DNA of 64,000 nt, taken from Candidatus Sericytochromatia bacterium. GTDB taxonomy: Bacteria; Cyanobacteriota; Sericytochromatia; S15B-MN24; JAQBPE01. Made by a program: the position numbers. The first letter of the stretch is position 1, and each line of letters starts with the position of its first letter. This document shows positions 18,001 to 24,000 of the stretch, one piece after another. The DNA is taken from the NCBI GenBank assembly GCA_040400605.1, contig JBBAPZ010000015.1:1-64000 (forward strand), in the 5' to 3' direction.

Positions 18001-21000
18001 CCCGAGGCGGGGTCTACCTGACACCAACGGACGTCACGCGACCGGGCGATCGCTTCCGGGTTCGCCAAACCACCCACGCACACCGCATCACCGCTTGCTG
18101 TTTTCGCCGGCCACTTGCAAAAAGCGGTGCATGTCTTTCATGTTTTGCTCGGCATACTGGTGGGTCATGCTCATCAAATTGGGTAACAACAAAAGCAACA
18201 AAATGAGTCCGGATACCGGCTTGGCGATGGTCACCAGGTCCTGGGTCAAGCTGCTCGCTTGCTGCGCCACTTTGCTCATGTAACCGACCCCCAATTCCGC
18301 CACAAACACAACGGTCACCATTGGCAAGGCCAGTTGAATCGTGATGGCTAAAAACGCACCGCTTGCCAGGATGACCTGCGCACCCACGGCAGGAGAGAGC
18401 ACAAAGCTACCGATGGGTACCAACGCGAAAGACTGGACGAAGCCGCCAATCAACCACAGATGCCCGCCAAACACCATAAAAATCAAAATGGCAATATTGA
18501 AATAAAACGTGCCCATCGCATTCACGTTCGTTTTGGTAAACGGGTTTTGCACGCTGGCTGAGGACAAACCGGCTTGGACACCGCCCAGTTCGCCCGCGGA
18601 TTGAATGGCCAGGAACATGATGTTTGCGGAATACCCAAGGATGAAGCCCAACGCCAATTCGGTCATCGCGACGATCACAAAACCAAGCAGTTGCTGCGGC
18701 AGTGCAGCCGTTGCCGGCATCTGCGTCATCGCAACCAGGCTGATGCCGGCAATGAGGCTCATCCGCACGGGCGCTGGTAAGTTACGATTGCTCAGTACCG
18801 GTGCCTGCATAAACAAACCAATGGCACGGGAGACAACCATGATGAAGGTAGGCACAGTCAGGGCCAGATACGCGACCAAGGCCTCCATCACGGCACCATG
18901 GCAGGTATCTGCCCAAACAGGCGTGTGACGTAGCCTACGACCGTGTTCAACATCCACGGTGCCACGAGCACGAGCACGAGCAAAACGGCGATCGCCTTGG
19001 GCACGAACGACAAGGTCTGTTCCTGAATCGAGGTGATCGTCTGCAACAGCGCGACAATAAAACCGACCACCAAACCTGTCAATAACATCGGTGCTGACAA
19101 AAGCAGCACCAGGATGATTCCCTGGGTCAGGACAGTCAAGACAAATCCGGTGGTCAAGGCCGCCCCCTCAGGTCATCGATAACTGCGCACCAACGCTTCA
19201 ATCAGCAAGTGCCACCCATTGGCCAAGGAAAAAATCAGCACCTTGAACGGTGGCGCCAACGATTGGGTCTGCAGTTGTTGCATGCCAAGGGCCATGATGA
19301 CGTTGGTGATGACGAGGTCCACGACAATAAAGGGCAAGTAGACGATGAAGCCGATTTTAAAACCCGTCGCGACCTCGCTGATCATGAAAGCGGGCACCAC
19401 CACGTGCATCGGGACATCTTCCGGCTTGCGTGGATCCGGCAACTTCGCCAACCGCAAAAAAAACGCCAGTTCCTGCTGGTTCGTTTGCTTGATCATGAAA
19501 TTCTTGAGCGGCACTTGGGCCTTCTCGTACGCCATTTCCTGCGTCATCTTGTTGTTCAAAAAAGGCACAATGGCATCCCGGTTGACCGCATCCCAGGTAG
19601 GCGCCATGACGTACATGCTCAAAAACAAGGCCATGCCGATGATCACCTGACCAGGGGGAACGTTTTGCAAACCCGTCGCCTGTTTCAGAAAAGCCAACAC
19701 CACTACAATACGAATAAATGGCGTGGTGGCAATGAAAAGGAAAGGCAGCAAAGTCAGGGCTGCGACCAGAAAAATTAATTGCAACGGCGTGGACAAACCA
19801 GGCGATTGCAGAGGCGCTCGGAGATCAAAGCTGCTCATCACCGTGGCGGCGTCCGCGGCACGCGTGGCGCACCAAGCTTCAGAAGGCCACAAACACACCG
19901 TCAGGAGTGCCAGGGCAAACAAGCCGACGCTCAAAACCCGGTTATGCTTCGTCACTGACGTCCTGCTCCTTGACCAGATGCTCAGAAAACGTGCCCAAGA
20001 CGTCTTCGGGCTGCAACTCCGCCACCGGCGTCAGGCGATCGCCCGCACTCGCCAACAGCCAATAACGCCCCCCGACACGAACCACCATCAAGGCACGGGT
20101 GGCATCCAGCGCGTGACGATCCACCACCTGAATAACCGGACGCTCCCGGCCCCGCAACAGCAAACCGGGAATGCGCTCACGCCAATAACGCGCACCAAAA
20201 AACCCCAACACCGCAACCACCGCCGTCACCACAACCAGTTGCAGCAAATACGGCCAGATACTGACATCAATGGGGGCCGGCCCCAGTGGCATCATCGACG
20301 GCCAAGGTGTCGGCGTGGCCCAGGCAATCAACTCAGGCGCCACCCGTCGCTCCTTGCAGGGCACTGTTGAAAATCTGTGTGATCTTGACCCCAAAGGAAG
20401 AACCAATCACCACGACTTCGCCTTGGGCGACAATCTGTCCCGCGACACTGAGGTTGACCGGCTCACCGGCGAGTTGTTCCAGTTCAATGATCGACCCCTC
20501 ACCCAATTGGATGACCTGCCGCAACGGAATCGACGTCCGCCCCAGCTCAACCATGACTTCCAACTTAAGCTCACGCAGAATCTCAAGATTCGGCTCATGC
20601 GACACCGCGCCACCCGAAAGCGGCGCAAAACGCACCTGGGATACCACCTGACGCTGAGTCAACGCTCAAACCTCCTGATTCCTGAAAATCCCCAACGATG
20701 CACCACTAACCCGGATTGACCCTGAGCAGCTTCTCAACACCCGGTTTCAACGATATCATCTTCACAGCTTTGTTGCCGTTAATGGTCAAGGGACGACCAC
20801 GGCCAGCCAACCGACCGTTAATGGATACCCCAATCGTGCCATCCGGCGATTTGGGCAATTCCAAAATTACCCCTTCCGCCAGGGTCAACCAATCCGCGGC
20901 GCTCAATTCCAGGCGTCCGAGATCCGCCACAATCTGCACATAGACATTGCTGAGCGGCCCCATCGCAGACGGCGCATCATCGTCCGCGGCCACCGCCTCA

Positions 21001-24000
21001 CGTGCCGAAATGACATTCGCCGTCTCAGGCTCCGTACCACCACCCGGACGATTCACCAAGGGCATTTCATAGCGCTCAACCGTCCAATCAGGCAAACGCA
21101 ATAACGACTGACATTCCAGCTCAAACTGCTTCAAGATGCGCTGCGTTTCAGCCTCCACGCGCACGGGATCAAAGCCATGCAAGGGCGCGGGCTCAATGGC
21201 CGGTATCTGCACCTCGATGGGCCGCGTGAACTCCGCCGCCTTGGGGTCAGACACACGCGCCGTAAAATCAACCCGACCAAGAATCAATCCAAATGCCCCG
21301 GACAACATGCACGCCGAGGAAAACGCATACGAAAACGCCACATTGGGATGACTCGCCGCCCCAAAGGTGTAAATCCAGTGCAAAATCACCGCAGGCGTCG
21401 CCACCGACACACTCGGAAACAGCGTCCGCAACAAGACAATCAAGGCTGCACCAAAGAAAAACCCCATCGCGCCGCCATAATAAAACCCGACAGCCCCCCG
21501 TACCAACCGGGCTGACAACCCCACGCCCACGTGCTCATCGCGCGGATCCGGCACCTCAGGCCGCAAAAACCCCAACACCAAACCCAAAAAACCAAACGGA
21601 ATCGCGTATCCCAACGCCCCCCAAAGCGCCCCATACATAAACGGCGGGTTCACCAACCAGCGCTGACGCTTGATATCCAACGGCTTGCGCGGCGGCACCT
21701 GCACAGGCGTCAACAAACCCGGAGACAAAGCCGTACCAACGACCTTCGCCATCGTCGAAATCACTCGCCCGCGCTCAATCGCAGGCCCCGGCGACAAACT
21801 CAAACCCAAACCGTGCGCGTGCGCCAACATATTGTAAGCACCCACACCCAACAAGCTAACCATCGTCAACACCAATAAAAACCCGCGCAACAAGCCGGCT
21901 GGTTGCGTCAAAGGCGGACTCAAGACGATGCTGCGCGGCTTGTAACGCCGGTAATACGTGAAATAATTGAGCGCCACCAGTAAGCTGACCGCATGCGCCA
22001 ACGTGTATCCCACCAGAAACGGATGCAAACCCGTGCCACTCGACGTCCAGAAGCGCACCAACATGAACAGCGGAAAAATTCCACCAACCAAAAACAGAAT
22101 CGTCCAAAAAAAGGAAACCTGCTGCGCAGGCGCGCGCGCAATCACGATGACACCTGCGCAATCTCAACCGCCAACCGACGACCATCCGGCGTGGTACCCG
22201 GCTTGCCCGCCATACGCGATTGCCCCACAATCACCTCCAGGGTGCCGCCAACCAAGGTATCCAACTCAATCACATCGCCCGCTTCCAATCCGTGCAAGTC
22301 ACTAACCGTTAACTCGACACGCCCCAAACACACCGTCACCGGCACAGGCACATCCTGGATAAAATCCAGGCGTTCGTGAAAATACGTGGTATCCGAACCC
22401 GTCAAGGTGGTCTCGCCGATCGCCTGCAAACTCGCACCCGCACTCAACAAATATGCCTGCGGAATCGCCAGCACCACCCGCGCCGTCTCCGTCTGCCCAG
22501 GCTGCGACACCCGAAACGCCGTCGTCACCACTGGCGTATTCGGATTCAGACCCGGAAACATCTGTTGCAACTCAGTCAAAGTCGGCGGAACCTGCGCCGG
22601 TATCATCTGGACATCAAACTGCGCGATTTCATGCCAACACACCATAAACTGATGCCCCAAGTGCATCAACCACTGCTCAACAAACGCAAAACCGTCATCC
22701 GTCGCCAACGCCTCAACATTCACCCCGGTCAAAATGCTCGCCGCCGCGCTGTCGACAAACACAAAACCACCCCCAGGCTGCTCCGCAAAATCCAAAATTC
22801 CCCACACCGCATCGCGCGCATAACGCGTCTCCAACGCCTGAAACGGAACAATCTCAACCGCGGTCACCTGCCATGCGGTCTGCGGAAAACTCACATACTC
22901 ATCCTGCAACTGGGCCATCTGCGCACACAAGTTGAAGTGAATATAGTAAATGGCGCGCATTTCCAGATTGTAATGATTGACACCAGCCGTCAGGACCGCC
23001 TCGTCCTCGGCGCTGACCCCATAAGACCCTTCCGAGTGTTGATAACCCTGCACGCACGTGCCTCCTACGGAAGCGTTCCCTCCCGTCTTCAAATGATACC
23101 AAAAAGCGCCACAGTCGCCCATTCAACCTAGCTCACGGACGGACCACAAACCGATTGATACTCGGCTGTGGACCGTGATGCGGCAGCGCCCGGCGCAAAC
23201 AGTGCTGCACAGGTTAAGAGCCAAAACCTGCACGGCAAATGCAAAACCAAGCTTTGGGAGCCTGCCGTTCTTCAAATGCCAGTCAAAATACCACTCACCG
23301 TTCAATGCCTGTTCGCCCCTTGAAACGCCCTGGTGACACGCCGGTGGTTTGAAAGTGGTCGACACATCCAATCACCTGACCGATGGGTGTTTGTTTTGCC
23401 TGTCACAGATGCTTGTTCGGTTAGGGGTTATGCTGCATGGGTATGATCGCGCTTGGTTCAGGCGACGGGCCTGATGCGGCGTCATAGGGGGCGAATGTCA
23501 TGAATGCGATTTCGCAAGGGCGTTACGGCCTGATGGGACTGATTCCAGAGGTACCAACATCGCTGCGTAGCGGCACGCTGGATGCCAATCGTCCCGAGGA
23601 GGAATTCATCAAGTTGATGGTGGCCCAACTGCAGAATCAAGACCCCGAAAAACCCATGGACGGCACCGCCCTCATATCGCAAGTCACGCAGATGAATGCG
23701 GCGATCGCCGTGCAGCGCATGAGCTACCTGACCACCGAAAACCACGCCGTTTCAACCGCCGCCGCCCTCCTGGGCAAACAGGTGCTGATTCGCCAGCCAG
23801 ATAACGGGGCCACGCTCACCGGTCGTGTTCAAACCGTTGACTACTCCGGCAAAAACCCCCTCATTGTGGTCGATGGCCAGTCTTTCCCGCTTAACGCCGT
23901 GTTGCGCGTAGACGTGTAGGAGGGCAAGTCATGTCGCAAGTTCAAAATGGCGTCTTCAATACGTTAAGCGCCATGGACCAATGGATGCGGGTCATTGGCT

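Follow-up and report, generated by a model that had tools for sequence, protein, structure and literature searches.

What does a FliN-like protein do when it carries a membrane domain of its own? To our knowledge, the SpoA proteins of C-rings and sorting platforms known so far are all soluble, with FliG or SctK/SctD as their link to the membrane. The window, a 64,000-nucleotide stretch of contig JBBAPZ010000015.1 from a Candidatus Sericytochromatia bacterium, encodes a protein (TM-SpoA) that joins six predicted transmembrane helices to a FliN-type SpoA domain and belongs to a second flagellar gene set, set 2. We propose, from sequence comparison and with a probability of about 0.5, that TM-SpoA is a membrane-anchored subunit of a C-ring or sorting platform, taking over the scaffold role of FliG in a type III exporter that does not serve swimming. 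A literature search, with the original Sericytochromatia genome descriptions outside its scope, found no paper on TM-SpoA, set 2 or any membrane-bound SpoA protein. The main text of PMC6349859 does not mention flagella or secretion, and nothing on set 2 was found in the accessible part of the main text of a motility-loss preprint (10.1101/2024.12.05.626484).

The TM-SpoA gene, its locus and its distribution

The features of the locus are as follows.

18088..18957, minus strand: fliR2, export gate
18888..19157, minus strand: fliQ2, export gate
19173..19955, minus strand: fliP2, export gate
19942..20406, minus strand: fliO2
20333..20662, minus strand: fliN2, an ordinary FliN
20706..22145, minus strand: TM-SpoA gene; the 479 aa comprise a membrane domain of six helices, a linker and a FliN-type SpoA domain
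20754..20954, minus strand: SpoA (FliMN_C) domain, aa 398-464, FliN-type, with invariant W419
21096..21167, minus strand: cytoplasmic linker helix, aa 327-350, predicted, with conserved residues
21279..22109, minus strand: membrane domain, aa 13-289, predicted six transmembrane helices, N-in/C-in
22142..23122, minus strand: fliM2, a divergent FliM (middle domain and SpoA) with no CheY-binding motif
23500..23919, plus strand: flgD2, hook-cap-like
23931..24947, plus strand: flgE2, of hook/rod type, short at 338 aa and without a match to FlgE D2

The neighbours named in the preliminary description, namely a fliM-like gene (22142-23122), fliN (20333-20662), fliO, fliP, fliQ and fliR, are in place. 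Directly upstream of the TM-SpoA gene is fliM2 in 43/43 genomes, and fliN2 follows directly downstream in 42/43, the exception being a contig edge. In the relatives G007 and G011, flgD2 lies upstream of flgE2-fliM2 and in the same direction. The start codon, GTG, holds up as the TM-SpoA start: it shares 4 nt with the end of fliM2, stop codon included, both here and in 8/8 genomes of the family, and the homologues have their starts at roughly this position. The true start of fliM2 is probably 30-55 codons downstream of the start of its ORF. An internal restart that would release the SpoA part as a separate product, in the manner of Spa33-C, was rejected, since the methionine before the domain is leucine or absent in several homologues. 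At this locus, a promoter and terminator scan gave no more signals than shuffled sequence.

Judged by gene order, TM-SpoA shares a transcript with fliO/P/Q/R in those loci that were inspected. This would fit an assembly factor that, like FliO or SwrB, chaperones or positions FliPQR/FlhA and recruits C-ring subunits during building, rather than a permanent ring subunit; SwrB of B. subtilis is a membrane activator of export, according to the available part of PMC4526659. However, FliO itself is kept in the class, either free or fused to FliP, a Pfam comparison of 67 TM-SpoA members found no similarity to FliO, and the full SpoA domain with invariant core residues points to stable incorporation into a ring. 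We consider such a factor quite unlikely.

Presence of TM-SpoA throughout the order S15B-MN24 stands as first described, and it extends beyond this one order: TM-SpoA is whole in 43/47 Sericytochromatia genomes. The four partial matches formerly counted among 20 other genomes of the class gave way, under a wider profile, to whole proteins of 644-699 aa in 17/20 and two more in pieces, which sit at contig ends. TM-SpoA was not found in 354 other genomes sampled from the phylum outside the class. A search of 1.84 billion representatives gave 1036 matches; among the best 150, an E<=1e-10 or a match to the membrane part was limited to the first 16 and one fragment, and the rest matched the SpoA region or the low-complexity linker only. 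Two matches, labelled Obscuribacterales and Woesearchaeota, were treated as mislabelled because each clusters at 90% with a Sericytochromatia-labelled protein.

The dN/dS of the membrane part is 0.04-0.25 in 13/13 measurable pairs (2/15 pairs being saturated), a range that indicates purifying selection on TM-SpoA. In the gene tree, five families and the order come out as clades with support of 0.98-1.0, and this pattern indicates vertical inheritance across the class. The class-wide spread, together with the loss of FliG-N and FliG-C from the machine of TM-SpoA, had been missed in the earlier reading.

The membrane and SpoA domains

Six hydropathy peaks were recovered, at about aa 10-35, 40-61, 82-109, 172-196, 220-253 and 271-292, and the AlphaFold2 helices were reproduced on a re-run. 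A topology prediction from charge distribution places both ends of the membrane domain in the cytoplasm in 43/43 orthologues; close to the ends of the helices, the mean number of lysines and arginines is 11.4 for the side of the N-terminus versus 3.1 for the opposite side, with the same bias in 43/43. The model of the membrane part has a pLDDT of 87 and a pTM of 0.89. Since 66/1000 whole-protein shuffles also give at least six hydrophobic windows, shuffling is a weak test on its own. Stronger evidence for membrane helices is the conservation of the windows: 5-7 occur in 35/35 homologues versus at least two in 3/133 SpoA-only matches, and these three resemble soluble FliY/CheC- or SctQ-type proteins. 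Topology, membrane-only model and gene order back the earlier claim that the second flagellar set has a FliN/SpoA subunit embedded in the membrane.

In an alignment of 43 orthologues, no column of the six helix cores is charged in more than 30% of sequences; because of this lack of conserved charge, an ion channel or transporter is disfavoured. Invariant in 43/43 are a glycine zipper, G220/G224/G228, and, on the cytoplasmic face, R195, E197 and R216. The length of the outer loop that follows TM3 differs between families, from 53 to 190 aa; the loop shows little conservation from order to order and is of low complexity in its long forms. A simple anchor would not require as much as six conserved helices plus a loop that reaches 190 aa, which counts against an anchor role.

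The membrane domain matches no known family or fold, although the absence of a match is no proof of a new fold. Pfam gave only sporadic weak matches for this domain, in one or two of 67 members each; NCBIfam matched the SpoA domain of TM-SpoA only, PHROGs gave no match for four TM-SpoA proteins, and the ESM Atlas gave no usable match. The best non-SpoA match of a PDB sequence profile has E 0.18. For the aa 5-304 model, Foldseek returned nothing at E<=0.001 and VIA-align reached at best Z 4.8 (rmsd 9.0, 130 aligned), with generic helical bundles; with the whole TM-SpoA model, the Z of the membrane part was at most 5.1, again to generic helical bundles. A membrane-only profile, for which the best 8000 candidates among proteins of 150-765 aa were scored, gave 36 matches; 36/36 also carry FliMN_C, and no stand-alone or otherwise fused membrane domain is among them.

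The size of the bundle, larger than an anchor needs, and the variable outer loop raise the possibility of a sensor or gate-keeper, in which the loop or bundle would sense contact or the state of the envelope and signal through SpoA, replacing CheY as the input that switches on export. It would suit this role that the CheY motif, present in the FliM1 control, is found in 0/43 FliM2 proteins. We regard it as doubtful: the low complexity and poor conservation of the loop, the failure of the fold comparisons to recognise a ligand-binding or receptor fold, and the constant pairing of the membrane domain with SpoA rather than another output domain all speak against it.

A linker of 105-129 aa in the orthologues joins the membrane and SpoA domains. 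Its predicted helix, in which E333 is conserved in 41/43 and F341 in 43/43, may serve as a docking helix. The SpoA domain was the sole Pfam match of this protein (FliMN_C, aa 398-464, E 2e-12), as described before; PF01052 scores 47.3 bits against a cut-off of 23.8, and 67/67 members are matched. Fold matches are the SpoA domains of FliN, FliY, FliM and SctQ, with Z up to 8.1 (VIA, 1o6a, rmsd 3.8, 80 aligned), and the best PDB sequence matches are FliN. In fold and sequence, the domain is thus nearest to FliN/FliY. Yet FliN is small and soluble, with no membrane helices, whereas TM-SpoA has six; with TIGR02480 (FliN) it scores 30.7 bits in G000 and 58.8 in G033, below the cut-off of 84.05, which FliN2 passes (84.9). 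TIGR02551 (SctQ) gives 34.6 bits versus a cut-off of 100.8, in the SpoA part only.

The three-SpoA C-rings of Campylobacter jejuni and Helicobacter pylori offer a close comparison, as far as the accessible part of PMC6946799 goes (see also PDB 5xrw): FliY is a third SpoA protein there besides FliM and FliN, and C. jejuni fliY stands right after fliM, as the TM-SpoA gene does after fliM2. In place of the CheC-like N-terminal domain of FliY, TM-SpoA has its six-helix domain; a CheC-like domain was matched in none of 67 members, whereas the set-1 FliY control has one. Those rings rotate with a full FliG, whereas set 2 has the FliG middle domain only. Derivation of TM-SpoA from FliY by domain swap fits the gene position but is not supported by a rough SpoA tree of 84 columns, with FliM windows cut off-register, which groups FliN2 and not TM-SpoA with FliY.

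A machine with a truncated FliG

In 44/47 genomes, the set-2 FliF forms a fusion with no more of FliG than its middle domain (FliF-FliG_M), and the fusion stops right after that domain in 31/31 aligned. FliF itself is full-size and carries the middle domain on a long, flexible, Pro/Gly-rich tether, with neither FliG-N nor FliG-C. Therefore, the torque-bearing FliG-C is missing from set 2. The one FliG-C of genome G000 is in the ordinary flagellar set. FliG-C-bearing paralogues of families f2, f4 and f7 were rejected as the set-2 FliG, being absent from families f1 and f6 and located elsewhere.

In most genomes of the class, set 2 stands beside a normal flagellum. Family f6, with six genomes, is informative: in these MAGs, 74-98% complete and one of them in 3 contigs, FliG-C and flagellin are each found in 0/6 and FlgK in 0/4, and a divergent FliG query finds only the FliF-FliG_M fusion (4/4 genomes). 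The same family has TM-SpoA in 5/6, FlhA in 4/5, FliH in 5/5 and FliI2 in 5/5, the last with 69-71% identity across orders; rod and L/P-ring genes are present in its genome G033. The tie of TM-SpoA to the second flagellar set, first based on gene position, is strengthened by its retention with set-2 genes where the ordinary flagellum is absent.

Set 2 of G000 and f6 encodes the export gate, ATPase complex, MS-ring, rod and L/P rings. Its flgB, flgC, fliE, flgH and other genes place it outside the non-flagellar T3SS as defined in the available part of Abby and Rocha (PMC3459982), and for FlhA2, FlhB2, FliP2, FliQ2, FliR2 and FliI2 the flagellar models give higher scores than the injectisome models do. 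The needle family PF09392 was found over the cut-off in 0/5 genomes, with a weak match in G011 (E 5.8e-4), in a search whose controls gave no positive.

Could set 2 be another flagellum for motility, of lateral or periplasmic type, which takes FliG and its filament parts from set 1, or else a decaying relic, the fusion being incidental? Flagellin is found in 41/47 genomes of the class. In G000 and G007, flhA2 is followed by a divergent flagellin-like gene, and set 2 of that family may therefore include something like a filament; G011, G033, G036 and G042 lack the gene at this position. G000 has no flgA/H/I genes other than those in the set-2 cluster, and some parts may therefore be shared with the ordinary flagellum. 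In f6, however, set 2 is retained where there is neither FliG-C nor flagellin that it could borrow, and purifying selection, the conservation of FliI2 and vertical inheritance argue against a relic. We find either form very unlikely.

In injectisomes, SctD/SctK link the SctQ platform to the membrane. By analogy, injectisome and set 2 may each have lost FliG function and gained another membrane link instead. The remaining comparisons are limited to the accessible parts of the papers cited. The SctQ platform belongs to a SpoA-based, non-rotating type III exporter derived from the flagellum (PMC4832279; PMC3459982), but SctQ is soluble and TM-SpoA membrane-bound, and set 2 keeps rod, hook-cap and L/P-ring genes, with no needle-family match over the cut-off in five genomes. 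In the non-motile setting of Chlamydiaceae, FliF is likewise fused C-terminally to a FliG middle-domain homologue (PMC4768692). That FliF is short (about 330 aa) and accompanied by few flagellar genes, in contrast to the full-size FliF and near-complete basal body of set 2, and the accessible part of the paper mentions no membrane-bound SpoA protein. In Lysobacter enzymogenes OH11 (PMC7688988) and the Myxococcales T3SS (PMC3459982), flagellar export machinery retained without a filament serves, or is proposed to serve, protein export. The former is a strain-level loss of fliC, whereas set 2 is class-wide with a dedicated new subunit; the latter lacks rod, FliE/G, FlgH and MotAB, whereas set 2 keeps rod, FliE and FlgH.

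The role of TM-SpoA and the stator pair

The roles of FliG-N, -M and -C in the flagellum are described in PMC4030992 (available part). We propose that TM-SpoA would fix the cytoplasmic ring of this second flagellum-derived export machine to the inner membrane, probably as a physical C-ring component. Its membrane domain, lying around the MS-ring, would give the ring the rigid attachment that normally comes from FliG. The SpoA domain would pair with those of FliM2 and FliN2, as FliN or FliY do, and help form a platform for FliH2-FliI2. Set 2 might then export proteins through a conduit of rod and short hook with L/P rings, with no swimming drive.

If so, a SpoA protein that is found class-wide and brings a membrane domain of its own to a machine without FliG-N and FliG-C would represent another way to attach the ring. 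Set 2 looks like a second, independent conversion of the flagellum to an export machine, with rod, rings and stator still present, and is relevant to the unsettled matter of how FliG disappeared from the injectisome and a new membrane link arose there. It also provides the first structural clue to a trait of lifestyle, perhaps export that depends on contact, in a sister class of the cyanobacteria about which little is known.

A non-canonical motAB pair occurs across the class, including f6, where FliG-C was not detected (MotB plug 5/5, MotA-like 6/6). Its retention even there counts against a purely static exporter, which would not need a stator. The glutamate of RREGLL(A/S)LE, which we take to be the MotA residue pairing with FliG-C, is missing from non-canonical MotA in 30/30 genomes listed and kept by canonical MotA in 7/7. 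MotB2 retains the plug region with its aspartate. In the model flagellum, it is a MotA glutamate that pairs with FliG-C (PMC4030992, available part). It is tempting to see here a new rotor gear, in which MotA2/MotB2 would push a ring of TM-SpoA membrane domains instead of FliG-C, and the SpoA domain would hand the torque on to the C-ring, so that a short rod/hook appendage turns for drilling, surface motility or powered export. In its favour, the invariant R195, E197 and R216 face the cytoplasm, and the L/P bushing genes are retained. We consider this unlikely. Two positions beyond the missing glutamate, many non-canonical MotA proteins retain an acidic residue, motAB2 adjoins set-2 genes in none of the loci examined, and non-canonical MotA of the order and of f6/f7 is not recovered by the tree as one clade. 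Moreover, MotAB-like pairs also do non-flagellar jobs, the three charges may form an internal salt bridge only, and the long flexible FliF-FliG_M tether is ill suited to carry torque. Improbable, too, is the fuller version, a third kind of type III machine, derived from the flagellum independently of injectisomes, in which a TM-SpoA ring replaces the FliG torque domain, is driven by the altered MotA/MotB and is coupled via SpoA to the C-ring as an ion-driven, filament-less rotary device for secretion or drilling. The parts of set 2 are few, and their expression and imaging in a laboratory host are feasible.

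TM-SpoA, its gene and its distribution

The 479-residue open reading frame at window:20706-22145 on the minus strand is borne out. Its sole Pfam match is FliMN_C at residues 398-464, as the preliminary description had it, and the six hydrophobic segments were found again, within residues 10-292. We call the product TM-SpoA, a six-helix membrane domain joined by a linker to a C-terminal SpoA domain. Its GTG start overlaps the end of the preceding fliM-like gene, stop codon included, by 4 nt; this overlap is kept in 8/8 genomes of the family, which supports the start. Purifying selection acts on the membrane part: among 15 genome pairs, 2 were saturated, and dN/dS was 0.04-0.25 in 13/13 measurable ones.

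AlphaFold2 places long helices at residues 13-35, 42-68, 82-109, 175-193, 210-242 and 267-289. Beyond them come another helix, in the cytoplasm (327-350), a region of disorder (353-395) and finally the SpoA domain; the membrane domain modelled alone has a pLDDT of 87 and a pTM of 0.89. With the helix limits of this model, mean Lys+Arg near the helix ends of 43 full-length orthologues is 11.4 on the N-terminal side vs 3.1 on the other side. The direction of the bias is identical in 43/43, which argues that both termini, the SpoA domain included, lie on the cytoplasmic side. No column of the helix cores is charged in >30% of these 43 sequences. The invariant glycines include a G220/G224/G228 zipper. 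Three charged residues at the cytoplasmic face of the membrane domain (R195, E197 and R216) are likewise invariant, as are the linker-helix residue F341 and SpoA core positions such as W419. The outer loop after helix 3 spans 53-64 residues in the order S15B-MN24 and 115-190 in other families, and the linker from helix 6 to the SpoA domain 105-129. Family and fold searches with the membrane domain gave no match, a result that does not establish a new fold. Among PDB sequences the SpoA domain best matches H. pylori and T. maritima FliN, and to judge from these the domain is of the FliN type. TM-SpoA itself scores under the FliN, FliY and SctQ family cut-offs; it would work like a C-ring SpoA subunit that stands outside all three families.

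The order-level range first proposed for the protein proves too narrow. A profile search that took in distant homologues of 551-675 residues recovered a whole orthologue in 43/47 genomes of the class Sericytochromatia, with 2 further genomes holding it in pieces at contig ends. Of the 2 genomes without it, one is 64% complete; the other, at 82%, lacks any assembled SpoA gene. A stop stands at the upstream edge in three of the 43 cases; whole open reading frames were nonetheless recovered. TM-SpoA was not found in the 354 other genomes of the phylum that were searched, a sample of unstated composition. A membrane-only profile gave 36 matches, and all 36 also carry SpoA. The gene tree recovers five families, and the order, each as a clade. 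With the suffix 2 marking genes of the second flagellar set, fliM2 lies directly upstream of TM-SpoA in 43/43 and fliN2 directly downstream in 42/43, followed by fliO/fliP/fliQ/fliR as far as the fetched DNA extends. In the source genome, G000, the block fliM2-fliR2 (window:18088-23122) points away from flgD2-flgE2 (23500-24947), and in G007 and G011 a single run goes from flgD2-flgE2-fliM2 to fliR2; this is a local inversion in G000.

A second, flagellum-derived machine

Two flagellar sets are present in G000. Set 1 is ordinary, with a full FliG, FliM with its CheY motif, FliY, MotAB, FliL, hook, FlgK/L and flagellins. Set 2 is dispersed over several loci:

Window: TM-SpoA operon, flgD2 and a short flgE2
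Contig C2: cluster of flgF, G, A, H, I, J, fliA, flgB, C, fliE, fliF, flhA and a flagellin-like gene
Near the C2 cluster: fliJ and FliK-like genes
Contig C9: fliH2-fliI2
Contig C5: flhB2
Contig C3: motAB2, probably of set 2

Flagellar models outscore injectisome models for the set-2 export proteins, which argues that the machine derives from a flagellum and is not a borrowed injectisome. On the features tested it appears to fall outside the definitions of both the motile flagellum and the injectisome. A literature search, thin on subscription papers, gave no account of a membrane-bound SpoA protein or of such a machine.

At its C-terminus the set-2 FliF of G000 (614 aa) carries the middle domain of FliG (Pfam FliG_M, E 1e-9), and nothing in it matches FliG-N or FliG-C; a second FliG was looked for in G000 and none was found. 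The FliF-FliG_M fusion occurs in 44/47 genomes of the class, whole in 43 and in two pieces in 1. In 31/31 aligned fusions the protein ends immediately past the middle domain, a Pro/Gly-rich tether connects that domain to FliF, and the EHPQ of set-1 FliG has become ERPA, ERLP, ERPG, EKPQ or QRPG. EHPQ has a role in FliM binding. FliM2, although divergent, is a true FliM, with a Pfam FliM match in 16/40 members and matches to FliM middle domains in the PDB (E 1e-5); the CheY-binding motif was found in 0/43 and a GGxG-like motif in 2/43. PMC4030992 gives the MS-ring as the binding partner of FliG-N and FliM as that of FliG-M, and has FliG-C in contact with MotA; set 2 is therefore without the usual rigid FliF link and without the torque surface. 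The chlamydial FliF-FliG(middle) fusion (PMC4768692) is among the nearest known counterparts.

Family f6 comprises 6 genomes, two of them >90% complete and one in 3 contigs. FliG-C and flagellin-family matches are each found in 0/6 and FlgK in 0/4, and a divergent FliG query matched only the fusion. TM-SpoA and FliF-FliG_M are each retained in 5/6, FlhA in 4/5, FliH and MotB in 5/5, and FliI2, 69-71% identical to that of G000, in 5/5. The f6 genomes G033, G029, G028, G031 and G032 each have 8-10 matches to the C-terminal rod/hook-type domain, many scattered and divergent. G033, like G029, has only three SpoA genes: fliM2, TM-SpoA and fliN2. Set 2 thus persists without a filament. The preliminary description could link TM-SpoA to the apparatus by gene position only; its retention alongside set 2 in f6 ties it to the machine by more than that.

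Two long FliH paralogues occur in 4/5 f6 genomes, where flagellin was not found, and CheW domains in 4/5. G033 has a 413-aa FliO-FliP fusion protein with both Pfam domains (fetched stretch L074:8771-10012), and long FliP reading frames suggest the same fusion in some genomes of f2 and in further ones of f6.

A proposed membrane anchor for the ring, and the second stator

How would such a ring be held? By analogy with C. jejuni, where FliY joins FliM and FliN in a three-SpoA ring (PMC6946799), the SpoA domain of TM-SpoA may join FliM2 and FliN2 in a ring of the same kind, which would serve as the platform for FliH2-FliI2. A fixed hold on the membrane disappeared along with FliG-N and FliG-C, and the six helices would provide it anew; the injectisome platform is similarly suspended from an inner-membrane link of its own. 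Given the height of a C-ring, the linker can span the distance between the membrane and the ring's lower rim. We give this reading, in which TM-SpoA may fix the set-2 ring to the membrane in place of FliG, a probability of about one half. It offers no account of the flagellin-like gene after flhA2 (G000, G007) or of the single L/P-ring gene set in G000. Besides the chlamydial fusion, the nearest known counterparts are three-SpoA C-rings, flagellin-less export in Lysobacter (PMC7688988) and the flagellum-to-injectisome path (PMC3459982).

What speaks most strongly against a static machine is that a stator has been kept. Across the class a non-canonical MotA is found; the glutamate of the RREGLL(A/S)LE motif is absent from it in 30/30 genomes shown and kept by canonical MotA in 7/7, a loss that fits that of the FliG-C partner. 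TM-SpoA might then be a new rotor gear, its membrane domain driven by the second stator, but motAB2 is not linked to set-2 genes and the second-MotA tree does not settle monophyly; we consider this unlikely. A sensor role seems equally doubtful, a role as assembly factor rather improbable, and a set 2 that uses borrowed parts or is a relic very improbable. The anchor remains our preferred reading.

The second motA-motB pair is class-wide (L009:5255-7015, that is G000:C3:86254-88014; L128:6044-8107 in G033). Its MotA has no canonical rotor-contact motif, measures ~360 aa in f6/f7 and in f7 lies behind a flbD paralogue. Families f2/f4 have a third rotor-stator module, whose protein of 615-758 aa joins a region weakly matching FliF-C to a complete FliG (N, M, C) (L077:5827-11237 in G009:C41; L090:5992-8055 in G011). 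Its gene is followed in G009 by one of FlgO type and by a motA-motB pair belonging to the module; no export genes lie alongside.

Further genes of G000

The sole flgA, flgH and flgI of G000 sit in the set-2 cluster (L001:13928-16419, G000:C2); either they also serve the ordinary flagellum or that flagellum does without L/P rings. On contig C17 (L005:288-8488, L013:12446-14906; G000:C17:34445-44487) a divergent FlgE/F/G-type gene starts a run of unknown genes. They encode small helical proteins of 75-110 aa, two proteins with HEAT-like repeats and one with BNR repeats, all of them candidates for set-2 substrates or tip components. Proteins consisting of the FlhA cytoplasmic domain with differing N-termini (L006:6895-8685, L007:6643-7746, L008:5557-6906) are possible substrate-sorting modulators; flagellin-less G033 has such stand-alone proteins too (L139:5184-6296, L140:6203-6532). 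Short contigs C62 (L010), C104 and C117 encode flagellins 38-45% identical to those of the window and have a G+C of 0.51-0.53 vs 0.56-0.58; they may be foreign to the bin.

Three further loci lie in the window:

8066-9382 (+): consecutive DUF2442-like, Gp49/RelE-like and HTH_37 genes, which look like a toxin-antitoxin module
27455-28480 (-): LIM-domain and DA1-like peptidase protein between flagellar clusters; in G007 at the same place by flhA
34799-35827 (-): gene in the ordinary flagellar operon, flanked by fliY and fliO, for a 342-aa protein that belongs to no Pfam family; C2 and C1 carry paralogues
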